A DNA stretch of 64,000 nucleotides from an uncultured delta proteobacterium (lineage in GTDB: Bacteria; Myxococcota; UBA727; VGSZ01): the NCBI GenBank assembly GCA_963775425.1, contig CAVZJB010000011.1, forward strand, positions 928,001-992,000. The letters run 5' to 3'. Positions 15,493 through 28,617 of this stretch are shown here, piece by piece. The notes below the pieces were generated by a model. That model searched no databases. It was not told where the DNA came from and worked only from the letters and a program-made list of their open reading frames with translations. The position numbers and the translations under genes were made by a program. Every line of letters begins with the position of its first letter. Position 1 is the first letter of the stretch.

Positions 15493-15546
15493 GATCTGGC
15501 TCCAACCGGCGCCTACGGTGGCCACACGTCACCAAACGGAGCCGCC

Positions 15547-15786
15547 ATGCGCATCAGCCTGCACCGTCGTCGCCACATGAGCCTGCCGCCGCGCAAGCGC
15601 CGCTCGCCCAAGGTGCTCGTGCTCTTCATCGCGCTCACCACGGGGACCATGGCGTTCGCCGCGTCCCGCCTCGGCCGGGACCGGGCGCCGCCCGCGGCCG
15701 ACCCGCGCGTCACCGCCGTCGACGACGAGACTCTGGCCCTCGCCGACGAGCGCATCCACGCGCACCTGAAGAAGCTCGAACGGTGA
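15547..15786 (+). CDS. Small single-TM hypothetical protein
   Basis: GGAG upstream of ATG; basic N-terminus and hydrophobic VLVLFIALTTGTMAFAA. Confidence 0.55.
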   Translation: MRISLHRRRHMSLPPRKRRSPKVLVLFIALTTGTMAFAASRLGRDRAPPAADPRVTAVDDETLALADERIHAHLKKLER

Positions 15787-15810
15787 CGACGCGGGGCACG
15801 GGCCCCCGCC

Positions 15811-16545
15811 CTACTCGAGGCGGCGGCGGCCGTCGTCGGGGGTGACGCCGGCGTCGCGGGCGACCTCGTCGGCGACCGTCTGCAGGCTCTTTTTGAGCTG
15901 ACCCGCGGCCGCCGTGAAGACCTTCTCCGCGAGCTTGCGCTTGAGCTTGCCCATGAGCCCGCCGCCGAGCTTGTCCACGCGCGCGCGCTCCTGCTTGGTG
16001 GGCGGGCGATCGAAAGCGCCGTCGAACGAATGGAGCCGGGCAGGGGACGGCGTCCCCTCGTGAGGCTCGAGGCCCGAGTCGACGATCTCGACGAAGCGGC
16101 CGTCCTTCACCCGCAGCACCGTGGTGCGCATCAGGTGCGCGCTGGTCTGCTCCTCGAGCACCACGAGCTCCTCGCGCGCCACGGCGCCGACCTGCGCGGC
16201 GACGGCGTCGGCGACGGCCGCGCCGCCGGCCATGGCGTTGTACGGGAAGCGCGCGCGGCGAAAGAAGACCGTGATCATCATCAGCGGGCCGCTCTCGACG
16301 ACGAGCGGGCCGCCCTCGCCCTCGGCCTCGATGCGGAAGCGCGGGCCGCCCGCGAGGGGCGAGCGCGGGCGCCCGGGATCGACGGCCTCGACGTCGACGC
16401 GCACGGTGCGCCCGGGGAGCGCCTTCTGCACGAGCGCCACCAGGCGCTCGACGCCCGCCGTCGTCGACAGCGGCGGCTCCTGGCCCGCGCCGGCGTCTCC
16501 TGCGCGGCCGCCGGGCTCGGGATCCAGGATCTCGGGATCCACCAT
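15811..16545 (-). CDS. Hypothetical protein
   Basis: Globular-looking ORF from MVDPEILDPEP, divergent from the radical SAM operon. Confidence 0.65.
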   Translation of the reverse strand: MVDPEILDPEPGGRAGDAGAGQEPPLSTTAGVERLVALVQKALPGRTVRVDVEAVDPGRPRSPLAGGPRFRIEAEGEGGPLVVESGPLMMITVFFRRARFPYNAMAGGAAVADAVAAQVGAVAREELVVLEEQTSAHLMRTTVLRVKDGRFVEIVDSGLEPHEGTPSPARLHSFDGAFDRPPTKQERARVDKLGGGLMGKLKRKLAEKVFTAAAGQLKKSLQTVADEVARDAGVTPDDGRRRLE

Positions 16546-16636
16546 GAGGGAGGTCTTGCATCCCCGCCCAAAGGCGTCGACCCCGGGCGCGCGACCCGTT
16601 GCGCTCGGGTGTGCTCTCCACCGAGAGTCCGGCGCG

Positions 16637-16969
16637 ATGATCTCCGAAGCCGACGGCTGCGATCTCCTGGCCCGCGTGTTCACGTCGCGCGGCTACACCG
16701 TGGGTCGCGACATCTTCTTCGACGAAGAGGGCGTCACCTGCACGCTCGACGGCTGGGACGCCGAGGCACGCGTGGGCTTCGAATACCTCACCCGCTCGGC
16801 GGGTGATCACGAGGACCTCACCAGCGACGAGCTCGGCCGCCTCGCGGCCCGCATCGAGCGCGGGGAGCTCTACGTGTTCATCGTCGACGAGCGCGACGTC
16901 GTCGACCCCGCCGAGCTCGAAGAGGCCGCCAAGCTGTTCCTCGACGAGGTCGAACGGAGGCGCGCGTGA
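16637..16969 (+). CDS. Small PD-(D/E)XK/Vsr-like fold protein
   Basis: 110 aa; TLDGWDAEARVGFEY resembles the LDG-x6-FEY motif of restriction-endonuclease-like folds; stop overlaps the next GTG. Confidence 0.55.
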   Translation: MISEADGCDLLARVFTSRGYTVGRDIFFDEEGVTCTLDGWDAEARVGFEYLTRSAGDHEDLTSDELGRLAARIERGELYVFIVDERDVVDPAELEEAAKLFLDEVERRRA

Positions 16970-18222
16970 GGGCCTGGTCCGGAATTCAGCTCCTCGACAT
17001 CGCGCGTGAGCGCCGGGCCCTCGCGGCGGGGGAGCTCAAGGCGGTGAAAAAGGACATCGCCGACGCCGAGCGCGACATCAAGAAGCTCGACGCCGCCGTC
17101 GACGAGGCGTGGGCCGACCTGGCCGCCGCCGTCGTGCCCTCGCTCGATGGCGCCTGGCTGGACGCGCGCGCGTCCCAGCTCCACCTGCCCTGGATCGCGC
17201 AGGAGCACGTGAAGCAGCAGCACGAGGAGTATGTGCGCGCGCAGCAGGCGGTCGTCGCCGCCGTCGACGCCGACCCCCGCGCCGCCCCAGGCGCCGACAA
17301 CGCCATCGCCATCAAGCTCGCCGAGGTCGACGACGCCATCAGGCCGCTGCACGACAGCGTCACCACGCTGGAGTCGGAGCCCTACTTCGCCGAGCTCATC
17401 CGCACCAACTACGACACCGACGCGTACGTGGGCCGCTTCTGGCAGCTCTCGTACTATCGCCACTGGAAGAACGCCGACATCATCGTCGCCAAGCACGGCA
17501 CGCGTATGAGGGTCACGCGCTTCGCGGAGCTGCGCGACAAGTACAAGGAGGAGCAGGCCGCGCTCGGGTCGCTCATCGGCGAGAAGCGGCGGCTCGAGCG
17601 GGCGCGCAACGAGGTCGCCGGCCTGCTGCAGAAGCGCGACGCCGCCGCGCGCGCCGTCGAAAACGCTGCCGCGCGAACCCTCGGCGTCGTGCGCTCCAAG
17701 GTGCAGAGCCACCTGCGGCCGGTGGCCCTCGACGCCGTGGCCCAGCTCTTCCCCGGGGAGGAGGGCGTCGAATTCCGGCTCAAGCGCATCGCCGGCGTGC
17801 AGAAGAAGCGCGACTACGCGCGCGCGATGATGGAGCACTTCCTGTTGAGCACGCGCGACAACCTCTCGCGCGTCGTGCAGAAGGCGAGCCGCGCCGAGAC
17901 CAAATACGGGCGGGCCAAGAACGCGCGGCGCACCTTCCAGGTCGACGTCGACCGCGCCTTCCCCGACAAGCGCGACGCGTGGCGCAAGCGCCGCGACCGC
18001 TTCTCGTTCGGCATGAGGCGCCTGAGCGCGTTCGACGACTGGAGTCGCGGCTCGCTCGCCGGTGACTTCCTGTGGTGGGACGTGTTCATGGACGGCTCGC
18101 TCGACGGCCGCTTCATCCCCGAGGTCGGGAGCGCCGGCGCGTCCTCGAAGGCGCACGCGGCGGTGGCGGCGCGGCAACAGGCGTTGCTCGACGACCAGGC
18201 GCTCGAGCTCGACGTGAGCTGA
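16966..18222 (+). CDS. Coiled-coil/helical hypothetical protein
   Basis: Heptad-rich helices plus aromatic motifs YDTDAYVGRFWQLSYYRHWK and FLWWDVF. Confidence 0.8.
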   Translation: MRAWSGIQLLDIARERRALAAGELKAVKKDIADAERDIKKLDAAVDEAWADLAAAVVPSLDGAWLDARASQLHLPWIAQEHVKQQHEEYVRAQQAVVAAVDADPRAAPGADNAIAIKLAEVDDAIRPLHDSVTTLESEPYFAELIRTNYDTDAYVGRFWQLSYYRHWKNADIIVAKHGTRMRVTRFAELRDKYKEEQAALGSLIGEKRRLERARNEVAGLLQKRDAAARAVENAAARTLGVVRSKVQSHLRPVALDAVAQLFPGEEGVEFRLKRIAGVQKKRDYARAMMEHFLLSTRDNLSRVVQKASRAETKYGRAKNARRTFQVDVDRAFPDKRDAWRKRRDRFSFGMRRLSAFDDWSRGSLAGDFLWWDVFMDGSLDGRFIPEVGSAGASSKAHAAVAARQQALLDDQALELDVS

Positions 18223-18234
18223 ACGGAGGCATCG

Positions 18235-19887
18235 ATGAGGTCCGTCTCCTTCATGAGCTACGCGGTGAACGGCAGCGGCGTCGGTCACCTGTCGAGACAG
18301 ATCGCGGTGCAGCGTTGGCTGCGCCGGCTGTGCGCTTTGTGTGGCGTCCGCTCGCAGCACTGGTTTTTGACGACGTCGGAGGCGGACACGCTGCTGTTCC
18401 GCGAGGGCTTCGCGGGCTTCAAGCTGCCTTCGAAGACGGTGATCGAGGCGTCGGGCGTCGACAAGCTCGCCTACATCGCGCTCGCCAAGCAGTGGGTGTG
18501 GCACTCGCTGTCGTTGTTGCGGCCGGACCTGTTCCTCGTAGACACGTTCCCGAACGGCTCGTTCCACGAGCTGGTCACCTGCCTGGACCTCTGCGCCAGG
18601 AAGGCGCTCGTCTACCGGCCCGTGAAGGAAGAGCTCGCCGCGCGCGACGACTTCCGCGCGGTGGCGCGGCTGTACGACCGCGTCATCGTCCCCGTCGACG
18701 ACGACGCCGTCGCCGACGCCGCGCTCGCGGCCCTCGGGCTGCCGCCCGCGCAGGCGGCGGTGACGGGTCCGGTGATGCGCGTGGAGCGCTTCGAGCAGAT
18801 GCCCCGCGCCGACGCGCGCGCCGCGTTCGGCGCCGCCCCCGGCGACCGCGTCGTCCTGGTCAGCGGTGGCGGCGGCGGCGACCGGAGCGTGGCGCGCTTG
18901 TTCGAGGACGCGCTCGCCGCCCGGGAGGGGCTGGAGGGCGGCGCGCGCGCCGGCGGCGTGCACCTGGTGCTCGCCGCCGGCCCGCTGTTCCGCGGCGCGC
19001 CGCTGCGGGCGCCGGCGTCGACGTGGTGGACGGCGCCGGATCTGGCGGAGCACCTCCCGGGCGTCGACGCCGCGGTGTGTGCGGCGGGCTTCAACACGGC
19101 GCACGAGCTGTTGTTCGCGGGCGTTCCCACGGCGCTTTTGGCGCAGGAAAAGATCGCCGACGACCAGGCCGCGCGCGTCGCCGCCTTCGCCGCCCGCGGC
19201 GCCTGTCTCGCCGCCGCGCCGGGCGCGGCGGGGATCGCGTCTGCGCTCGCGACGCTCCTCGACGACGGCGCGGCGGCGGAGCTGAGCGCGCGCGCGCGCG
19301 AGGCGGTGCCGGACAACGACGCGCGCTCGGCGGCGGCGGCGGCGCTGTCGCTCGTGTTGCCCGAGCTCGAGGTGCGCCGTGCGCTCGACGCTCTCGAGGA
19401 CGACGCCCTCGCGCGGACGCGCGGCGCGGGCCTCTCGCTCGCCGAGGTCGTCGACGTGGCGGGCGCGCTCGGCGACGCCTTCGACCTCTCGGGAGCGCTC
19501 GACGTCATCGAGCGCGCGCACGAAGAGGGCGTCGCGCGGCAGACGCTGGCCAAGGTGACGGGGCTCCTGTCACGCAAGCTGCGCGTGGTCGGCGACGGCG
19601 CCGGCGTCGGCCGCGCGCTCGACGCGCTCTTCGACGCTCCGGCGGCGCGAGGGCAGTGGGCGGCCTTGCCGATGCTCTTGCAGATGCTGCCGTCAGAGCG
19701 GGTGTTGTCCCCGGAGGCGTGGACGCGCGAGCTGGTGGCGCTGCTCGAGGCTGCGGCGTCCGCCGGCCTCGACGTCTTCGCGGCCACACGGCTGCTCCAC
19801 GAGTGCAGCGAGGAGGCGGGCGACGCGTCGTCGAGCCGCCCGTTGTTCTCGGCGGCGGGCCGCCGCTTGAAGGAGCGCGCCGCGTGA
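18235..19887 (+). CDS. GT-B glycosyltransferase (GT28-C/PseG-like) with helical C-terminal extension
   Basis: YAVNGSGVGHLSR; LVSGGGGG; DAAVCAAGFNTAHE; DDQAAR; GGAGG RBS. Confidence 0.85.
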   Translation: MRSVSFMSYAVNGSGVGHLSRQIAVQRWLRRLCALCGVRSQHWFLTTSEADTLLFREGFAGFKLPSKTVIEASGVDKLAYIALAKQWVWHSLSLLRPDLFLVDTFPNGSFHELVTCLDLCARKALVYRPVKEELAARDDFRAVARLYDRVIVPVDDDAVADAALAALGLPPAQAAVTGPVMRVERFEQMPRADARAAFGAAPGDRVVLVSGGGGGDRSVARLFEDALAAREGLEGGARAGGVHLVLAAGPLFRGAPLRAPASTWWTAPDLAEHLPGVDAAVCAAGFNTAHELLFAGVPTALLAQEKIADDQAARVAAFAARGACLAAAPGAAGIASALATLLDDGAAAELSARAREAVPDNDARSAAAAALSLVLPELEVRRALDALEDDALARTRGAGLSLAEVVDVAGALGDAFDLSGALDVIERAHEEGVARQTLAKVTGLLSRKLRVVGDGAGVGRALDALFDAPAARGQWAALPMLLQMLPSERVLSPEAWTRELVALLEAAASAGLDVFAATRLLHECSEEAGDASSSRPLFSAAGRRLKERAA

Positions 19888-20996
19888 AAGCCGCCGAGGT
19901 GCGCCTGCAATCGCTCGAGGACGGCGTGGTCCGCCTGGGCCCGCAGACGGTGCACGTCGATCTCACCAACGCGTGCAACACCGACTGTGTCACCTGCTGG
20001 GATCACAGCCCGCACCTGACGCAGGCGCGGCCGGCGTCGTGGAAGCGACAGCGCGCGGACGCGGGCTTCGTGCGCGCGCTCCTCGACGACATCGAGGCGC
20101 TGGGCGGGCTCGAGGCGGTGATCCTCTCGGGCATGGGCGAGCCGTTCACGCACCCCGGCGTCTACGACGTGATCGCCGACGTCAAACGACGCGGCCTGCA
20201 CCTGACCATCATCACCAACCTCGTGGCCGCCGACGTCCGCCGCGTGATCGACCTCGGCGTGGACACGTTGCTCATCGGCGTGCAAGGCGCGTCGCAGCAG
20301 AGCTACCTGGCGTTTCATCCGTCGTTCTCGGCGCGGCACTGGTCGCTCTTGATGGAGCAGCTCGCGGCGCTCAAGGCCGCGGGCAGGCGCGACAAGCACG
20401 TGCAGGTGGTGTGCGCGCACAACGCCCACGAGCTCTCGGCGATGGTGGAGCTGGCGGCGGAGCACGGCGCGGCGCAGGTGAATTTCAAGCTCGCGTCGCT
20501 GCGCGCGGGGACGGAGGCGGTGCGCATCGACGACGCGCAGCGGGCGGCGTTGCTCGAGCGCGACATCGCCGCCGCGCGCGAGCGGGCGCAGGCGCTCGGC
20601 GTGGCGGAGAACCTCGAGGTGTTCCGGGCGCAAGTGGAGGCAGGCGGCGAGACCACGGCGCCCATCGAGGAGATCGGCTGCTTCCTGGGCACGTCGTACG
20701 CGCGCATCACCGTCGACGGCAGCGCGCAGTATTGCTGCAACACCGAGACCGTCGTCGGCCGCGTCGATGACGACACACCGTTTTCTTCGCTGTGGACCGG
20801 CGACGCCTGGGCCGCGATGCGCGCCCGTTTGCGCGAGGGGCGCTACTTCCCCGGCTGCCGGCAGTGCGGGAAGCTCAACCAGAACGTGAAGCTGTCGCGG
20901 CGCTTTCGCGCCCTCTTTGGCGTCGAGCGCTGGGCCCGCGTCGCCGGCGCGGAGACGGCGACCGTGCCGCGCGCGGCGCTGCGGGTGTTGCCATGA
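19884..20996 (+). CDS. Radical SAM protein with SPASM/Twitch-type auxiliary domain
   Basis: CNTDCVTC; SGMGEPF; C-terminal CFLG...YCCN...CRQC; GTGA overlap. Confidence 0.92.
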   Translation: MKAAEVRLQSLEDGVVRLGPQTVHVDLTNACNTDCVTCWDHSPHLTQARPASWKRQRADAGFVRALLDDIEALGGLEAVILSGMGEPFTHPGVYDVIADVKRRGLHLTIITNLVAADVRRVIDLGVDTLLIGVQGASQQSYLAFHPSFSARHWSLLMEQLAALKAAGRRDKHVQVVCAHNAHELSAMVELAAEHGAAQVNFKLASLRAGTEAVRIDDAQRAALLERDIAAARERAQALGVAENLEVFRAQVEAGGETTAPIEEIGCFLGTSYARITVDGSAQYCCNTETVVGRVDDDTPFSSLWTGDAWAAMRARLREGRYFPGCRQCGKLNQNVKLSRRFRALFGVERWARVAGAETATVPRAALRVLP

Positions 20997-21976
20997 CGCG
21001 CGGTGGGTACCGGGTTGGCGGCGCCGGCCCCGGGTCGCGCGGGCGCGGGCTGCCGATCGTCGACGGCGCCGTCCCGCTGGAGGGCGCCACCACCCTGGAC
21101 GCCGGCGCCCTCGTCGGAGCCGCGTGGCCGCACCGGCCGACGGTGGAGTGGCAGGTGTGCGGGCAGTGCAACTACGACTGCTCCTATTGCATCCAGTCGA
21201 AGAAGCACCGCGTCGGCGTCCCCGACGACGACGTCGTCGAGCGCTGCTTGGCGTTGCTCGCGGCGCTCCCCGGCCGCTGGGAGGTGAAGACCAGCGGCGG
21301 CGAGCCGTTTTCGACGAGGCTGTTCCTCGAGCGCATCGTGCCCGCGCTCGCGCGCGCCGGCCACATCGTCTCCACGCTCACCAACCTGTCGGCGCCGGCG
21401 CACAAGCTCCTCGAGTACGTCGGCATCCTCGGCGGGAACCTCGGCGTCGTCTCGGCGAGCCTGCACCTCGAGCACACCACGGCGCCCGTGTTCCTCGACA
21501 AGCTCACCGCCATGCGCGCGGCCACCCCTCACGGCCGCTTCGTCGTCAACGCCGTGCTCGTGCCCGAGCGGCTGCGCGAGCTCGTCGAGGTCAAGCGCGC
21601 CGTCGAGGGCGCCGGCTTCTCGTTTTTTCCGCAGCTCATGAAGGTGAAGCACGGCGTCTTCGCGTACACCCCCGAGCAGTGGAGGCTCGTCGAGGACGTC
21701 GTCGGCGATCCCGCCGAGGCCGCGCGCGCGCGCACCGCCAACATGGCCCCCGCGTACACGGGCCGGCGCTGCTTGAGCGGCGCGCGCTACTTCGTGCTCA
21801 TGCAAAACGGCGACGCCTGGAGCTGCCGCTCGGCCAAGCGCGTCGGCGAGGGCTTCCTCGGCAACGCCGTCGACGGCGGCGTGCGGCTGGCTGCGGCCGC
21901 TCGCGCGTGCGCCTACACCATCTGCCCCTGCGCCACGCCCGCCAACCGCGGGATGATCGAGGGCGTCTCCCCGTGA
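20993..21976 (+). CDS. Radical SAM protein with Twitch-like C-terminal Cys cluster
   Basis: CNYDCSYC; SGGEPF; CLSG...WSC...CAYTICPC; ATGA overlap. Confidence 0.92.
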   Translation: MTRGGYRVGGAGPGSRGRGLPIVDGAVPLEGATTLDAGALVGAAWPHRPTVEWQVCGQCNYDCSYCIQSKKHRVGVPDDDVVERCLALLAALPGRWEVKTSGGEPFSTRLFLERIVPALARAGHIVSTLTNLSAPAHKLLEYVGILGGNLGVVSASLHLEHTTAPVFLDKLTAMRAATPHGRFVVNAVLVPERLRELVEVKRAVEGAGFSFFPQLMKVKHGVFAYTPEQWRLVEDVVGDPAEAARARTANMAPAYTGRRCLSGARYFVLMQNGDAWSCRSAKRVGEGFLGNAVDGGVRLAAAARACAYTICPCATPANRGMIEGVSP

Positions 21977-22923
21977 AGCCACCGCCGCTCCCCGTGGTCC
22001 CTCCCGATCGCGTGATCCTCGGGGCCACGCCGGAGCCTCCCATCGGCGTGGTCGCGTGGAACATGAACACCTCCTGCAACTACCGCTGCTCGTACTGCAC
22101 GCAGCGCTTCCTTGACGACCGCACCCGCTGGGCCGCCGACGTCCCGCGCTTCCTCGACGGCTTTTCCCGCCTCATGGAGGCTCACCCCCGCTGGGAGGTG
22201 AAGCTCTCCGGCGGTGAGCCGTTCCTTCACCCGCGCTTCCTCGACGTGGTCGCCGGCCTGCGCGCGCGGGGCTTTCTCGTCGGCGTCGTCACCAACTTCT
22301 CGGCGCCGCGCGAAAAGATCGCCGCGTTCCTCGACGCCGCCGGCGACGGGCTCACGGTGCTCTCCTGCTCGCTGCACCTCGAGATCGTTCGAGGCGGCGC
22401 GCCCGGCGATGACGGCGCGACCCCCGATGACGGCGTCGGACACTTCATCGACAAATGCCGGTTTGCGCAGGCGCGCCTTCGGTCCGGCTCGCTCGTGGTC
22501 ACGACGGTGGCCACGCGGGCCGTCTTGCCGGAGCTCGCGGCGCTGCGCGAGCGCTTCGCGGCGGCCGGGGTGGCGCTCAAGGTGCAGCCGGAGAAGCAGG
22601 ACCGGGTGGTCATCGCGTACGACGACGGCGAGCTGCAGGAGCTCGTGCGGCTCGGCGGCCACAACGGCACCGGCGTCGTCGCCCACGACTTCCTCGGCCA
22701 GCCGTGCTGGTCGGGCGCCCGATCGCTGATCGTCGACGATCGCGGCGAGGTGTGGCGCTGCTACCCCGCCCGCCGCCACCGGGCCGAGCGCCTGGGCAAC
22801 CTGCTCGACGGCACCCTGCGCCTGTCGACGGGGCCCACGCCCTGCCGCTATGCCTATTGCAACTGCACGGTGCCCATCGCGCGCGGCATGATGCCCACGA
22901 CGGCACACGAGGGAGCCCGATGA
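21973..22923 (+). CDS. Radical SAM protein, paralog of the preceding gene
   Basis: CNYRCSYC; SGGEPF; CWSG...WRC...CRYAYCNC; GTGA overlap. Confidence 0.92.
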   Translation: MKPPPLPVVPPDRVILGATPEPPIGVVAWNMNTSCNYRCSYCTQRFLDDRTRWAADVPRFLDGFSRLMEAHPRWEVKLSGGEPFLHPRFLDVVAGLRARGFLVGVVTNFSAPREKIAAFLDAAGDGLTVLSCSLHLEIVRGGAPGDDGATPDDGVGHFIDKCRFAQARLRSGSLVVTTVATRAVLPELAALRERFAAAGVALKVQPEKQDRVVIAYDDGELQELVRLGGHNGTGVVAHDFLGQPCWSGARSLIVDDRGEVWRCYPARRHRAERLGNLLDGTLRLSTGPTPCRYAYCNCTVPIARGMMPTTAHEGAR

Positions 22924-23423
22924 AGTACACCACCTTTCGCACGCTCGCCGTCGGCGCCGTCGTCCTCGTCGCAGGCGGCGGCGTCGCCGGGTACCTGCTG
23001 TTGCGGCCGGCGCCGCCGCCGGAGGACCCGGTCCCGCTGCACGTGACCTCCGCGCCGGTGGCGCCCGCGCCTGGGCCGGCGGCACCCGCGCCGGCGACAG
23101 CCACGCCGGCGGCGGCCGCGCCCACGCCGACGACGCCCGGCGTGCGCGACGTCGACAACGCCATCCTCTCCCTCGTCAGCTCGCGGCCGGTGCAGGCGAA
23201 GATCAAAGACGCCACCAAGGGTCAGCCGTTCAAGGTGAACCTCTACAGCGACGACGGCGCCCACTGGACGCGCGCCAAGGTCGACCTCGATCGCGACGGC
23301 AACGACGACGAGAAGTGGACGTTCAAGGACGGCGCCTGGGAGCGCAAGGTGTCCAGCGCCGACGACGGCAGCAATTACGACGCGCGCTTCCTGCTCGGCC
23401 CGCGCGGATGGTCGAAGAAGTGA
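22920..23423 (+). CDS. Membrane-anchored protein with Pro-rich linker and DxDxDG motif
   Basis: N-terminal TM helix; KVDLDRDGNDDEKWTF; ATGA overlap. Confidence 0.8.
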   Translation: MKYTTFRTLAVGAVVLVAGGGVAGYLLLRPAPPPEDPVPLHVTSAPVAPAPGPAAPAPATATPAAAAPTPTTPGVRDVDNAILSLVSSRPVQAKIKDATKGQPFKVNLYSDDGAHWTRAKVDLDRDGNDDEKWTFKDGAWERKVSSADDGSNYDARFLLGPRGWSKK

Positions 23424-24349
23424 CGGCGCCGTTCCAGAGCCTCGAGGACGTCGAGCAGCGCCTGCGCGCCGTCGGGTATCTCCCCGACAAGCGGATCACC
23501 ACGTCGGCGCTGCTCGCGGTGAAGCTCGAAAAGCCGCTGCTCGTCGAGGGCCCCGCGGGCGTCGGCAAGACGGACCTGGCGCGCGCCATGGCGGAGGCGC
23601 AGCAGATGAAGCTCGTGCGCCTGCAGTGCTACGAGGGCATCGACGAGAGTCGCGCGCTCTACGAGTGGGAGTACGCCAAGCAGCTCCTGTACACGCAGCT
23701 CCTGCGCGACCACCTGCAGGAGCTGGTCGGCAAGAAGGCCAGGCTCGACGACGCCGTCGACGCGCTCACCAGGACCGACAGCATCTTCTTCTCGGAGCAC
23801 TTCCTCCTCGAGCGCCCGCTGCTGCACGCCATTCGCGCCGAGGAGCCTTGTGTGCTGCTCATCGACGAGATCGACAAGGCGGACCCGGAGCTCGAGGCGC
23901 TGCTCCTCGAGGTGCTCGCAGACTTCGCCGTCACCATCCCCGAGATCGGCACCCTGCGCGCGGTCACGCGCCCGCAGGTGCTCCTCACGTCCAACTCCAC
24001 GCGGGAGCTCTCGGACGCGCTGCGCCGCCGCTGCCTGCACCTCACCCTCGGCTACCCCGACCGCGAGCGCGAGCTGGCCATCGTGCGCGCGCGCGTGCCC
24101 GGCGTCGACGAGGCGCTGGCGCGCGCGGTGGTCGGCGCGGTGCAGAAGATCCGCACCTTGGATCTGCGCCGGGCGCCGTCCATCAGCGAGGTCATCGACT
24201 GGACCCGTGCCCTCGGCCTCCTCGGCCGCGGCGTCCTCGACGAGGGCACGCTCGCGGACACCATCGGCGTGATCATGAAGCACAAGGACGACGCGGCGCT
24301 CGTGCTCTCCAAGAAGGGCGACGTCGTCGTGGCGTCGCGCGAGCCCTAG
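23420..24349 (+). CDS. MoxR-family AAA+ ATPase (CoxD-like)
   Basis: GPAGVGKT; RLQCYEGIDESRALYEW; LLIDEIDK; ELSDALRRRC; start at GTG 23420 (alternative ATG 23408). Confidence 0.93.
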   Translation: MTAPFQSLEDVEQRLRAVGYLPDKRITTSALLAVKLEKPLLVEGPAGVGKTDLARAMAEAQQMKLVRLQCYEGIDESRALYEWEYAKQLLYTQLLRDHLQELVGKKARLDDAVDALTRTDSIFFSEHFLLERPLLHAIRAEEPCVLLIDEIDKADPELEALLLEVLADFAVTIPEIGTLRAVTRPQVLLTSNSTRELSDALRRRCLHLTLGYPDRERELAIVRARVPGVDEALARAVVGAVQKIRTLDLRRAPSISEVIDWTRALGLLGRGVLDEGTLADTIGVIMKHKDDAALVLSKKGDVVVASREP

Positions 24350-24422
24350 GGTCCGAGCTGCGGGACCGGGTCATAGGGTGTCGCCGCCGGAAGAGCCGCG
24401 CGTTCGCCTCGTGCCGTGAGCG

Positions 24423-24965
24423 CTACTTGAGCACGAAGAGAACCACGAGGCCGACCACGACCAGCGCGGCGACCACGCCGATGCCCACCATCACCATGGT
24501 GTTGCCGCCGCTGCGCGCGGGCGAGGCGGCGGCCGCGGCGGCGGCCTTGGCCTGCTGCTCCTCGGGCTCGACGACCTTGATGACGAAGCCCTCGGTCTCG
24601 AGCATGGCGATGAGCTCGCCGAGGAACTTGTCGTATTCGCTCTGGTAGAGGTCGAGCGCGCTCTGGAAGCGCTGGCGGTGGAGCATGTTGAGGGAGGCGT
24701 AGGAGCGCAGCTCGCACGAGCGCAAGCCGAGGTCGAGGAAGCCGCAGGTGATGGAGCCGGCGACGTCGCCGTTTTCGGCGCGCAGCACGATGGACTCGCG
24801 GGCCTGCTTGCCCCCACCCGTGGACTCCATCTTCGGCGCTTCGACGTTCACCACGCGCGTCACCGCCCCCGAAAAACGGGTGCCGGAGAACCGCTGGGTG
24901 ATGAGGTCACTCGCGGCCAGGGCCGCCTGCGCGAATGCTGTGAGCGCCTTCTTTTCGTACGTCAT
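24423..24965 (-). CDS. Hypothetical protein with C-terminal TM anchor
   Basis: MTYEKK...[15 protein letters not shown]...; hydrophobic C-terminal tail. Confidence 0.7.
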
Positions 24966-25109
24966 GGTGGCGACGCTACCACACGCCCCGGGGACCGGCC
25001 GTTCCCCGGGGAACGACGGCGCGTGCCGCCGCCCTTCCTCACCCTTGGCATGCAGACCGCCAACGGCTACACCACGCATCGAAATCATTCTTCCGACGAG
25101 GAGACAACC

Positions 25110-27383
25110 ATGATCGACGGCGTCGAGCTCATCCAGAAGGCGTACGCGCGCATGCAGCAGAAGCACGAGGAGGGCCGCAAGCACTTCGGCCGTCCGCTCA
25201 CGCTGACCGAGAAGATCCTCGTCGCGCACATGGACAAGGTCGCCGACGAAGACGGCAAGAAGCTCGAGCGCAAGAAGAGCTACGCCAACCTCTTCCCCGA
25301 CCGCGTCGCGCTCCAGGACGCCACCGCGCAGATGGCGCTCCTGCAATTCATGCACGCGGGCAAGAAGGAGGTGGCCGTCCCCTCCACCGTGCACTGCGAT
25401 CACCTCATCCAGGCGCACGTGGGCGCCAAGAACGACCTGCTGCGCGCCGTCGACGAAAACAGCGAGGTCTATGACTTCCTGCAGTCGGTCTCGCAGAAGT
25501 ACGGCCTCGGCTTCTGGAAGCCGGGCGCCGGCATCATCCACCAGGTCGTGCTCGAGAACTACGCGTTCCCGGGCGGCATGATGATCGGCACGGACTCGCA
25601 TACGCCCAACGCCGGTGGCCTCGGCATGATCGCCATCGGCATCGGCGGCGCCGACGCCGTCGACGTGATGGCCGGCTTCCCGTTCAACCTGCGCTGGCCC
25701 GGCGTCATCGGCGTTCACCTCAAGGGCTCGCTCAAGGGTTGGACGGCGCCCAAGGACGTCATCCTCAAGCTCATGGGGATCCTCACGGTGAAGGGCGGCA
25801 CCAACCACATCGTCGAGTTCTTCGGCGAGGGCTGCGCCTCCATCTCCGCCACCGGCAAGGGAACCATCACCAACATGGGTGCGGAGCACGGCGCCACCAC
25901 GTCGGTGTTCCCGTTCGACGACGCCATGGCCCGCTACCTCACCGCCACCAACCGCGCCGCCTGGGCCAAGCTCGCCGAGGCCAACGCGGGGGCGCTGCGG
26001 GCGGATCCCGAGGTCGCGGCCGAGCCGAGCAAGTTCTACGACCGCGTCATCGAGATCGACCTCGACACCCTCGAGCCGCACCTCGTCGGGCCGCACACGC
26101 CGGACCTCGCGCGCCCCGTGAGCGCCATGAAGGACGCGGTGCACAAGGAGAGCTACCCGGACAACCTCACGTCGGCGCTCATCGGCTCGTGCACCAACTC
26201 GTCGTACGAGGACGTGTCGCGCGCGGCGTCGCTGGCGGCGGCGGCGGAGAAGGCGGGATTGAAGGCGAAGGTGCCGTTCTTCATCTCGCCCGGCAGCGAG
26301 ACCATCCACCTCACCATCCAGCGCGACGGCCAGATGGCCACGTTCGCGTCGGCCGGCGGCACCGTGCTCGCCAACGCGTGCGGCCCCTGCATCGGGCAGT
26401 GGAAGCGCGACGACATCAAGGAGGGGGAGAGGAACACCATCGTCACCTCCTTCAACCGCAACTTCCGTGGCAGGAACGACGCCAACCGCGAGACCCTCGC
26501 GTTCATCGGCTCGCCCGAGATCGTCACGGCGCTCGCGTTCGCGGGCACGCTGTCGTTCAACCCCTTGAAGGACTCGATCAAGACGCCGGACGGCAAGGAG
26601 TTCACCTTCCCCGCGCCCACGGGCGTGGAGCTGCCCGAGAAGGGCTTCCTCGTCGATCAGAAGGGGTTTCTTCCGCCCGCCGCCGAGGGGGAGAAGGTCG
26701 ACGTGAAGGTCAATCCCAAGTCCAAGCGCCTCGCGTTGCTCGAGCCGTTTTCGCGGTGGAGCGGCAAGGACATCGGCGGCGCGTTCGTGCTGTTGAAGGC
26801 CAAGGGCAAGTGCACCACGGACCACATCTCGGCGGCGGGGAAGTGGCTCTCGTTCCGCGGTCACCTCGACAACATCTCCAACAACCTCTACATCGGCGCC
26901 ACCAACGCCTTCTCCGACGCCGTCGGCACCGTGAAGGACCAGCTCGACGGCGCGGTGAAGGACGTCCCCGCGGTGGCGCGGCACTACAAGGCCGAGGGCA
27001 AGCCCTGGGTGGTGTTCGGCGACGAGAACTTCGGCGAGGGCAGCTCCCGCGAGCACGCTGCCATGGAGCCCCGTCACCTCGGCGGCGTGGCCATCATCGT
27101 GCGCAGCTTCGCGCGCATCCATGAGAGCAACCTGAAGAAGCAGGGCATGCTGCCCCTGACGTTTTCCGATCCCGCCGACTACGACAAGGTGCAGGAAGAC
27201 GACACGGTCGACATCGTCGGGCTCGGCGCGCTCGCGCCGGGCAAGCCGCTCGAGGTCGTGCTGCACCACAAGGCCGGCGGCACCGACACGTTCCAGGTGA
27301 GCCACACCATGTCGTCGGAGCAGATCGAGTGGTTCAAGGCGGGCAGCGCGCTCAACGCGGTGGCCGGCGCAGGGAAACACTGA
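25110..27383 (+). CDS. Aconitate hydratase, mitochondrial (ACO2)-like clade
   Basis: [53 protein letters not shown]; GAGGAG RBS. Confidence 0.95.
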
Positions 27384-27488: not shown

Positions 27489-28031
<543 letters not shown>

Positions 28032-28035
28032 TCCC

Positions 28036-28617
28036 ATGCCCACGACAGTCATGCGCGGCCGCTGCCCCCGGTCCTCGACCGCGGTCGCAGGTCGCGTCAC
28101 CGCGCTGGCGCTCGCCGCGTTCGTCGTGGCGGGGTGCGAGGGAAAGGCCGACGTCACCATCAACGCGGACAAGCCGGGCGAGGTGAAGCTCAACGGCAAG
28201 GACGCGGCGCAGGTGCACATCGAGAAGGACGGCAAGAAGCTCAGCGTCAACGGCCAACCCGCGGGCAACATCGACGTCAACGTGAACAACGGCAAGGTCA
28301 GCGTGACCACCGGCGCCGCGCCCGCGGACGCCAAGGCGCAGGCCGAGCAGATCTTCTCGCAGCGCTGCTCGGTGTGCCACGGCATGGACGGGAAGGGCGA
28401 CGGGCCGGGCGCGGCCGCGTTGAACCCCAAGCCGCGCAACTACACGGACGCGAAGTGGCAGGCCTCGGTCACCGACGACCTGATCGCCAAGACCATCGTC
28501 GAGGGCGGCGCCGCCGTGGGGAAGTCCCCGCTGATGGTTCCGAACGCGGACCTGAAGGACAAGCCCGACGTCGTGAAGGCGCTGGTGGCCAAGGTCCGTT
28601 CGTTCAAGACCCCGTAG
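28036..28617 (+). CDS. Monoheme c-type cytochrome lipoprotein, paralog
   Basis: Lipobox VAGC; CSVCH; heme domain near-identical to the upstream gene. Confidence 0.92.
   Translation: MPTTVMRGRCPRSSTAVAGRVTALALAAFVVAGCEGKADVTINADKPGEVKLNGKDAAQVHIEKDGKKLSVNGQPAGNIDVNVNNGKVSVTTGAAPADAKAQAEQIFSQRCSVCHGMDGKGDGPGAAALNPKPRNYTDAKWQASVTDDLIAKTIVEGGAAVGKSPLMVPNADLKDKPDVVKALVAKVRSFKTP

Follow-up and report, generated by a model that had tools for sequence, protein, structure and literature searches.

A widespread seven-gene cassette of a glycosyltransferase and radical SAM enzymes in an uncultured myxococcotal bacterium, and its possible role in modifying the C-terminal serine of a helical protein

Chemistry at the C-terminal end of a gene-encoded polypeptide is known from several bacterial systems. 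In mycofactocin biosynthesis (MftA-F), a radical S-adenosylmethionine (radical SAM) enzyme of the SPASM type acts on the C-terminal residues of a precursor, and a glycosyltransferase (GT) decorates the product. In LysW-type carriers and in pearlins, an acidic polypeptide serves as a docking site for unrelated enzymes and is modified at its final residue. In this work, we describe a locus from an uncultured member of the Myxococcota, located in a 64-kb window (the whole stretch of DNA that was analysed, 64,000 nucleotides, with a GC content of 72%). Here, seven genes in a row, g1 to g7 (16637-23423), encode a GT, three radical SAM enzymes and three non-enzyme proteins, one of which (g2) ends in a conserved serine. 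Judged by its conservation in other genomes, this unit is one copy of a widespread, uncharacterised cassette. It may direct radical SAM- and GT-dependent protein maturation and could represent a new class of C-terminal modification.

The closest described systems differ from the cassette in several respects. Mycofactocin relies on a short precursor peptide bound by a recognition element of ribosomally synthesised and post-translationally modified peptides (RRE), requires a peptidase and a flavoenzyme, and uses a GT of another family. LysW and pearlins depend on attachment to the side chain of a C-terminal Glu or on tRNA-dependent extension, and neither a GT nor radical SAM enzymes define them. 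Pilins are reported to be glycosylated at a C-terminal Ser or Thr by the periplasmic oligosaccharyltransferases TfpO (PilO) and TfpM (PMC9829042). Those enzymes are periplasmic membrane proteins that use lipid-linked glycans and pilin substrates, whereas the cassette combines a soluble GT-B enzyme and cytoplasmic carriers with radical SAM enzymes. In the siderophore-microcins (MccE492, with MceC, MceI and MceJ), as reported, a glycosylated siderophore is added post-translationally at the polypeptide C-terminus; the likeness to the present locus lies in a sugar-bearing moiety at the C-terminus of a gene-encoded polypeptide and in a GT within the cluster (PMC6071977). In contrast to the cassette, the microcin is a small exported toxin, its GT acts on enterobactin, radical SAM enzymes are absent, and exporter and immunity genes are present. 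Genes for microcin maturation, export or immunity were not found in the cassette or its flanks. As described, none of the compared systems (TfpO/TfpM, microcins, mycofactocin, LysW, pearlins) shares enzyme families, compartment or gene set with the cassette, and targeted searches in a limited literature collection retrieved no work on a radical SAM and glycosyltransferase cassette of this kind.

Conservation of the gene set

Relatives of the locus were sought at three depths. Among near relatives, a g2 query was matched in 8 of 41 related genomes. A search of the phylum with the GT as a query against 401 genomes gave full-length relatives in several families. A wide survey, in which a GT alignment was run against one genome per species, produced 412 GT relatives, of which the best 80 were examined as loci, gene presence being scored by tblastn with the window proteins. 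Below, G numbers denote genomes and L numbers denote loci.

The order g1-g2-g3-g4-g5-g6-g7 is kept in G005 and G009, and in G007 and G008 the synteny of the cassette runs up to the contig end; all four belong to one genus of the same family. The full gene set is also found in G047 and G056, and g2 to g7 in G108, representing two other families of the phylum. Among the best 80 of the 412 GT loci, g2 was present in 69, g4 in 60, g5 in 50, g6 in 42, g7 in 40, g1 in 37 and g8 in none. Where the locus reached at least 6 kb past the GT start, g4, g5, g6 and g7 were held together in 39 of 51 cases, all 39 being colinear and on one strand; where there was room upstream, g2 was found in 60 of 66 loci and g1 in 35 of 66. 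No other flanking gene family occurred in more than nine of the best 80 loci. These loci come from Enhygromyxa salina DSM 15201 (L051) and from metagenome-assembled genomes (MAGs) labelled as Myxococcota, Acidobacteriota, Planctomycetota, Gloeobacterales (Cyanobacteria), Actinomycetota, Anaerolineae (Chloroflexota), Ozemobacteraceae and others.

These presence counts are the reason why we regard g7 as a core member of the cassette and the MoxR-type ATPase gene that follows it (g8) as a non-member. An earlier sequence-only reading of this DNA had taken all eight genes as one unit; the absence of the ATPase gene from all 80 loci, together with the synteny in G006 described below, reduces the unit to seven. 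The same reading held that its proposal would fail if homologues were not co-conserved in other genomes or if the cluster matched an already characterised pathway. Neither condition applies, since the genes are conserved together and curated models fail to match them: the non-enzyme parts of the cassette are matched by no Pfam, NCBIfam or PADLOC model, and the enzymes by no model at its cut-off. In this respect, the idea of a modification-type cassette without a characterised counterpart is supported.

The order to which this organism belongs also includes a family (f6) represented by 21 genomes of 0.3-3.4 Mb, compared with 8.3 Mb for the genome described here; g2 was found in none of them, and a marginal GT match was found in 1 of 21.

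Within the window, the co-directional and tightly packed arrangement of the eight open reading frames (ORFs), as reported earlier, was confirmed. All are open on the plus strand, the GC content at the third codon position (GC3) is 0.90-0.97 across them, compared with 0.40-0.55 at the second position, and an independent GC3-based gene calling recovered the same genes. Five junctions are 4-bp overlaps, as previously read (GTGA at 16966, 19884 and 21973, and ATGA at 20993 and 22920), and the 12-nucleotide gap with GGAGG is indeed present before the ATG at 18235 that starts g3. The sixth proposed 4-bp overlap, between g7 and g8, is less secure: GTGA is present at 23420, but the in-frame ATG at 23408 aligns with the start of the MoxR orthologue in G006 (MSETTVPF.. 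versus MVEEVTAPF..), which makes a 16-bp overlap more likely and ATG 23408 the probable start of g8. Short overlaps are common in high-GC operons, and the strong evidence that these genes are not grouped by chance comes from synteny in other genomes. A promoter scan of 15500-25200 found no promoter-like site, and a terminator scan of the same interval gave ten terminator-like sites, all within coding sequence and unconvincing.

The terminal serine and the proteins of the cassette

The g2 gene (16966-18222) encodes a 418-residue protein for which no family was found in Pfam or NCBIfam, and which we propose as the substrate or carrier of the system. Its AlphaFold2 model is a long curved helical bundle of high confidence (predicted local distance difference test, pLDDT, 93.6; predicted template modelling score 0.80). 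The C-terminal tail (residues ~390-418, encoded by 18133-18219) is predicted to be disordered, with pLDDT values of 55, 55 and 43 in the last three 10-residue blocks, and it ends in D-V-S, the codon of the terminal Ser being AGC at 18217-18219. The protein belongs to a large family: a full hidden Markov model (HMM) search of 1.84 billion cluster representatives gave 631 representatives at an expectation value (E) of at most 0.001, and 527 at E<=1e-10. A word-indexed protein search, which gave only three matches, understated it.

In family members encoded next to the GT, the last residue is invariant. A terminal Ser was found in 69 of 69 g2 homologues of L051-L130, where position -3 is D in 56 and E in 6, and in 7 of 7 other loci of type A, the form found in the window (L009-L012, L035, L036 and L040). 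It was also found in all 19 phylum-search loci, which partly overlap the other sets, and in 150 of 151 readable g2-family representatives, each from a different 50%-identity cluster. The sole representative without it is a 339-residue fragment covering profile positions 1-339 of 433. The usual ending is thus [D/E]-x-S, on tails that vary in length and sequence and are acidic and often His-rich. The terminal Ser is encoded by TCC (22), TCG (18), TCA (12), AGC (9) and TCT (8), all three stop codons are seen, and the spacing from the end of g2 to the GT start ranges from -4 to +114 nucleotides. Because five Ser codons, three stops and a variable spacing are used, the selection for the terminal Ser, as judged from these alignments, acts at the level of the protein rather than the DNA. 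In G017 and G012, genomes in which no GT match was found, a g2 homologue is accompanied by g1 but by no GT, and these two homologues end in ..AER and ..DDD. From these comparisons, the Ser ending tracks the presence of the GT and not the carrier family.

The same ending is found on proteins unrelated to g2. In type B loci (L037-L039, L070, L074 and others), an optional g1, a helical protein and a long GT are accompanied by a distinct radical SAM enzyme of ~357 residues; the helical proteins, Pro/Trp-tailed and non-homologous to g2, end in ..ISS or ..PES. These loci also carry one or two ~320-residue proteins without a Pfam or NCBIfam match, which have an N-terminal ..T-x-Y/F-F-N-P.. motif, occur in 8 of the best 80 loci and are paired with the ~357-residue radical SAM enzyme (L070:9375-10343, minus strand; L039:13113-15070, plus strand; L037:4623-6592, plus strand). 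A third, myxococcal-type form (L041-L045 and L050) has a short GT of ~360 residues that lacks the extension, together with a SPASM enzyme resembling g4 and, in most cases, a single radical SAM enzyme resembling g5. Its GT is preceded by a TPR-matching protein that ends in ..DHS in 6 of 6 loci and in further phylum-search loci, and whose sequence suggests a signal peptide as well as a hydrophobic stretch preceding the tail. Finally, L048 and L049 hold distant relatives of the GT, with no radical SAM gene in the vicinity. Upstream of them lies a small Cys-rich acidic protein of 118-128 residues ending in ..GGS (L048:9121-9507, plus strand; L049:10428-10784, minus strand), with an acidic Tyr-rich tail and a weak B-box zinc-binding match (E 2e-4). 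Both loci come from large myxobacterial genomes of cultivable type (genus g90), and this protein and its GT may represent a minimal pair of carrier and GT.

The g3 gene (18235-19887) encodes a 550-residue GT-B glycosyltransferase of the GT1/GT28 type, whose C-terminal part, beginning near residue 385 (19387-19884), forms a helical extension. Its database matches are weak (TIGR01133, murG, at 25.7 bits against a cut-off of 250; PDB 3s2u at E 3e-3), so that a MurG (GT28) match at equivalog level was not obtained; the short-form GT matches murG at 9e-13 and a macrolide GT at 1e-10. In an alignment of 15 sequences, G13, G15, G17, H18, D103, E291, D309 and Q311 are invariant, and the hallmarks of GT-B enzymes (GT1/GT28) are present, namely an N-terminal Gly-rich loop with His and C-terminal donor-binding motifs. 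In GT1 and GT28 enzymes, the N-terminal His and an Asp provide the base for the acceptor hydroxyl, and the C-terminal D-x-Q binds the sugar donor. Since these residues are conserved, we infer that g3 is an active O-glycosyltransferase. The long C-terminal extension is found only where the upstream protein is a helical carrier. A PDB match of this extension to BurrH (E 4e-4) was regarded as compositional, reflecting Ala/Leu-rich helices. A complex prediction of the full GT with g2 scored 0.10 against a mark of 0.32; it gave no answer and was not used for or against binding.

The three radical SAM enzymes are encoded by g4 (19884-20996), g5 (20993-21976) and g6 (21973-22923), the last two being paralogues (cross-matches 28-38% identical). 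The CxxxCxxC motif is intact in all three, and the three cluster Cys together with five C-terminal Cys are 100% conserved among aligned homologues (n=56 for g4, 45 for g5 and 41 for g6). Pfam matches g4 to Radical_SAM (2e-11) and SPASM (1.4e-6), indicating a C-terminal domain of SPASM/twitch type, and matches g5 and g6, which carry a five-Cys C-terminal domain, to Radical_SAM. All NCBIfam matches of g4 are far below their cut-offs, including the mycofactocin MftC model TIGR03962 (28.7 bits against 265). The best named match for g5 and g6 is the STM4011 family (NF038073), and the likeness spans the C-terminal Cys-rich region. However, the scores (40.7 and 49.1 bits, and 47.8 bits for the myxococcal-type homologue) are far below the cut-off of 200, and that family is itself uncharacterised. 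PDB sequence searches with g4 to g6 gave nothing better than E 4e-5. The CxxxCxxC of g4 starts at residue ~31, leaving no N-terminal domain. There is no room for a short precursor peptide gene in the cassette, all junctions being overlapping or 12 nucleotides apart, and the only non-enzyme products are g1 (110 residues), g2 (418 residues) and g7 (167 residues).

The product of g1 (16637-16969) is an acidic protein, proposed here as an accessory partner of g2, without a match in Pfam, NCBIfam or PDB-profile searches. Its language-model neighbours, DUF559 and PvuRts1I-like proteins at 0.85-0.86, serve as a lead only. D38 and E49 are invariant and T52 nearly so; with no conserved Lys after them and no family match, the protein possibly has a PD-(D/E)xK-like fold lacking the Lys. 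Whenever present (37 of 80 loci), g1 stands directly before g2. A g1-g2 pair without a GT was found in L013, and in a Treponemataceae-labelled MAG, the two form one ORF of 549 residues (L066:6264-7913), which is either a natural fusion or an artefact of assembly or frame. Because of this fusion and the GT-less pairs, we infer that g1 goes with the body of g2.

The product of g7 (22920-23423) is predicted to be membrane-anchored, with one transmembrane helix, a Pro/Ala-rich linker and a beta domain of ~95 residues. No family was found for it in Pfam or NCBIfam. Its gene always stands after g6 and encodes one to four copies of the domain: two copies are common elsewhere (L051, L054, L056 and others), and a homologue in a Pirellulaceae-labelled MAG has four in tandem (L088:6456-7958). 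An alignment of homologues gives a conserved N-terminus, M-K-F/Y-K/T-T-F-R, and the domain holds an acidic D-L-D-R-D..D-E-K-W loop. If the positive-inside rule holds, the beta domain would lie outside the cytoplasm. Its AlphaFold2 model (pLDDT >90) consists of a helix and six strands, for which Foldseek and VIA-align found no clear structural relative. The best neighbours are Osh4 (structural similarity score, Z, 6.9), the beta-meander domain of GtfA/TarM/Gap1 (Z 5-6) and OspA-like sheets.

The best structural neighbours of g2 are BAR, F-BAR and I-BAR domains (Z 8.8-10.3), which make up 9 of the best 14; FAM92A1 BAR and Rgd1p F-BAR align at Z 10.3 over 151-154 residues, with a root-mean-square deviation of 4.1-4.2. 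The model thus resembles BAR-domain membrane scaffolds in its long curved bundle and in its neighbours. Nevertheless, these Z values lie below the chance level for helical proteins (up to ~13), there is no sequence similarity, and Foldseek against PDB returned only generic coiled coils (best E 0.06). The likeness of the model hints at membrane binding by g2, but it remains within helical-protein noise.

The protein labels given in the sequence-only reading mostly stand. The coiled-coil assignment of g2 agrees with its confidently modelled helical bundle, and the intact CxxxCxxC motifs with extra C-terminal cysteines proved to be fully conserved. The assignments to radical SAM with SPASM, two further radical SAM enzymes and an AAA_5/MoxR-type ATPase are sound, and GT-B is reached through weak matches to MurG and a macrolide GT; nuclease-like g1 is a lead only. 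Among the substrates suggested there, the coiled-coil protein is the best candidate, in view of its invariant C-terminal Ser, which tracks the GT, while a nucleotide is not indicated.

The neighbouring ATPase gene and the insertion site

The g8 gene (23408-24349) encodes a MoxR/AAA_5 ATPase (AAA_5 match at 7e-13) that is presumably co-transcribed with the cassette here and is not a member of it. It scores 343 bits against the NCBIfam MadB_ATPase model (cut-off 475). No literature was found on a 'MadB family AAA-type ATPase', the name 'MadB' there referring to a lanthipeptide dehydratase and other proteins. Orthologues in G005 and G008 (61-62% identical) lie on contigs other than that of the cassette, and those in G002, G004 and G006 (72-74% identical) are found in genomes without a g2 or GT match. 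In the window, the gene upstream of the cassette (15811-16545, minus strand; 244 residues, no family) lies outside it and marks the insertion point. In G006, the ATPase gene starts 64-79 bp from the homologue of this gene, with no cassette between them, and is followed by homologues of 24423-24965 and of the aconitase gene, which is the window order minus g1 to g7. Because G006 preserves this order, the comparison places g1 to g7 as a 6.8-kb block that separates the ATPase gene from an old divergent promoter region. Judging from this arrangement, g8 is the older neighbour, and its transcription presumably now continues from that of the cassette. The earlier suggestion that the two 3' genes are merely co-transcribed thus fits g8 and not g7, which is a core gene in 39 of 51 loci.

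Around the 6.8-kb block, only GC-rich chance matches were found in a search for direct repeats, with no pair resembling an attachment site, and no mobile genes were found flanking it. Because of this, gain in the lineage of the window and loss in G006 are indistinguishable.

Several observations concern the surroundings of the ATPase gene. In G005, a different upstream gene of 529 residues overlaps the MoxR orthologue by 4 bp (L138:10937-12526, minus strand), so that the ATPase gene is translationally coupled to unrelated genes in different genomes. No VWA match was found in the neighbours of g8 (g7 and the minus-strand gene 24423-24965). The latter encodes 180 residues with a faint DUF6480 match (E 0.006) and is conserved as a MoxR neighbour in G006 and G005 (53-63% identical). 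The flanks of the window are of a housekeeping character, with GAPDH, a GGDEF protein, a mitochondrial-type aconitase (25110-27383; TIGR01340, 1104 bits) and two cytochromes c. These tandem paralogous c-type cytochromes (27489-28031 and 28051-28617, plus strand) lie downstream of the aconitase gene and match 'cytochrome 579' at 37-39 bits against a cut-off of 280.

Proposed chemistry, alternatives and meaning

We propose that g2 is a substrate or carrier whose C-terminal Ser is glycosylated by the GT, and that the radical SAM enzymes tailor the adduct; we put the probability of this reading at roughly 0.5. In this scheme, the cytoplasmic GT1/GT28-type enzyme would recognise the end of the tail and O-glycosylate the terminal Ser, which is the likeliest acceptor because [D/E]-x-Ser-COOH is the sole feature common to the genomic partners of the GT. 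Where the GT is of the long form, its helical extension may hold the g2 body. The three radical SAM enzymes, with their predicted auxiliary clusters, would next use radical chemistry to modify either the sugar or its junction with the Ser. They are likelier to act there than on the tail, because the sets of radical SAM enzymes vary and the tail end is constant. With its conserved seven-residue cytoplasmic N-terminus and outside beta domain, g7 would tie the assembly to the membrane, and g1 would be an accessory partner of the g2 body. Anchoring by g7 fits the myxococcal-type form, where an outside domain and a Ser-ended cytoplasmic tail are combined in one membrane protein. A wider formulation, which we hold somewhat more tentatively and at slightly less than even odds, is that a GT family spread across many phyla recognises [D/E]-x-Ser-COOH on unrelated carriers and glycosylates the last residue, and that, in the full cassette, three radical SAM enzymes rebuild the sugar into a new protein-bound group which, together with g7, marks or wires a membrane-associated scaffold.

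A number of points weigh against this proposal. The chemistry is drawn from gene content and conservation only, and a role in docking, sorting or stability could account for the invariant C-terminal motif instead. It would be unusual for three radical SAM enzymes to share a single residue or sugar as their target. No RRE or PqqD-like domain was found in the radical SAM enzymes by Pfam or NCBIfam, although distant RREs can escape HMMs. The g7 protein has no Cys, and its role is not accounted for by the scheme. The set g4 to g7 is missing from 12 of the 51 loci that extend far enough; some of them have a different radical SAM gene and unassigned 320-residue proteins, and some have nothing recognisable. 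For the distant GT relative in L047 (E 3.5e-21 to g3), the upstream protein ends in ..GAGR, so that, as judged from this locus, the Ser-end rule fails for some distant relatives, and in L046, the upstream gene could not be called.

The most serious competitor, which we regard as possible though rather unlikely, is a membrane glycolipid or glycan pathway. Here, the GT and the radical SAM enzymes would build or tailor a glycoside at the inner membrane, either lipid-linked or a small molecule, with g2 as a BAR-like scaffold, g7 as a membrane partner and [D/E]-x-S as a peptide for docking of the GT. The weak matches of the GT to MurG, which uses a lipid-linked acceptor, point in this direction, and so do the predominance of BAR-family domains among the neighbours of g2 (9 of 14, Z 8.8-10.3), the anchoring of g7, whose domain faintly resembles the lipid-binding beta folds of Osh4/ORP and LolA (Z 4.4-6.9), and the Ser-ended tail on a membrane protein in one variant. 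However, neither the conserved set nor the flanks include lipid or sugar-nucleotide synthesis genes, a flippase or a transporter, and the share of non-enzymes, two or three among six or seven conserved genes, is higher than is typical of small-molecule pathways. The Z values of the BAR matches fall below the noise level of helical proteins, and a mere docking motif needs no invariant last residue on four unrelated carriers. Less probable again is a released metabolite or cofactor, built on the Ser-ended tail by the GT and the radical SAM enzymes, in the manner of LysW-type carriers, pearlin scaffold peptides or mycofactocin, and cleaved off by an enzyme encoded elsewhere. In line with such templating, the unrelated carriers have nothing in common beyond a disordered, acidic tail and its last residue. 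The small, Cys-rich, zinc-ribbon-like and acidic carrier of L048 and L049 recalls LysW, and mycofactocin also joins a SPASM radical SAM enzyme at a peptide C-terminus with a GT. On the other hand, the genes conserved with the cassette include none for a peptidase, a hydrolase, an exporter or an enzyme that would use the product, a structured carrier of 420 residues with a partner g1 and a membrane partner g7 exceeds the needs of a scaffold, and the score against the mycofactocin radical SAM model is roughly a tenth of its cut-off.

Two further explanations involve g8, and both appear highly improbable. Anti-phage defence, raised as a possibility in the sequence-only reading, would have viperin-like radical SAM enzymes produce modified nucleotides alongside a nuclease-like g1 and an AAA ATPase. 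Weak viperin matches do exist at the N-termini of g4 to g6 (PADLOC pVip at 20-50 bits; the NCBIfam model NF038283 at 24.5, 27.1 and 46.2 bits), and the language-model leads of g1 (0.85-0.86) are to families with an endonuclease fold. Yet these matches cover only the shared radical SAM core (residues ~25-140) and are far below the cut-off of 180. With PADLOC, the window yielded only these partial pVip matches and weak AAA matches, with no system model satisfied and no match at all for g1, g2, g3 and g7. The ATPase is outside the cassette, the flanks are housekeeping, and no defence or mobile genes recur in the 80 loci, so that the defence suggestion is unsupported. The other explanation is that all eight genes do form one system, with the MoxR ATPase remodelling or activating a complex of the radical SAM enzymes and the GT. 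It draws on the overlap of 4 or 16 bp between g7 and g8 and on the lack of a terminator-like site between the two genes. Against it stand the absence of g8 from all 80 loci, the orthologues on separate contigs in G005 and G008, the presence of g8 in the cassette-less G002, G004 and G006, and its position in G006 directly next to the homologue of the window gene 15811-16545. For annotation, the lesson is that a neighbouring ATPase was wrongly counted as part of the cassette on the strength of translational coupling alone.

Returning to glycosylation of the terminal Ser followed by radical SAM tailoring, the scale of the family gives the proposal its reach, with 631 g2-family representatives and 412 GT relatives in species genomes from many phyla. 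It is rare for a disordered tail to end in an invariant residue, and this feature lends itself to a sharp test. If the proposal is true, the cassette would provide a new substrate class for radical SAM enzymes and a cytoplasmic counterpart to the C-terminal glycosylation of pilins, and it would represent a previously unknown class of protein C-terminal modification.

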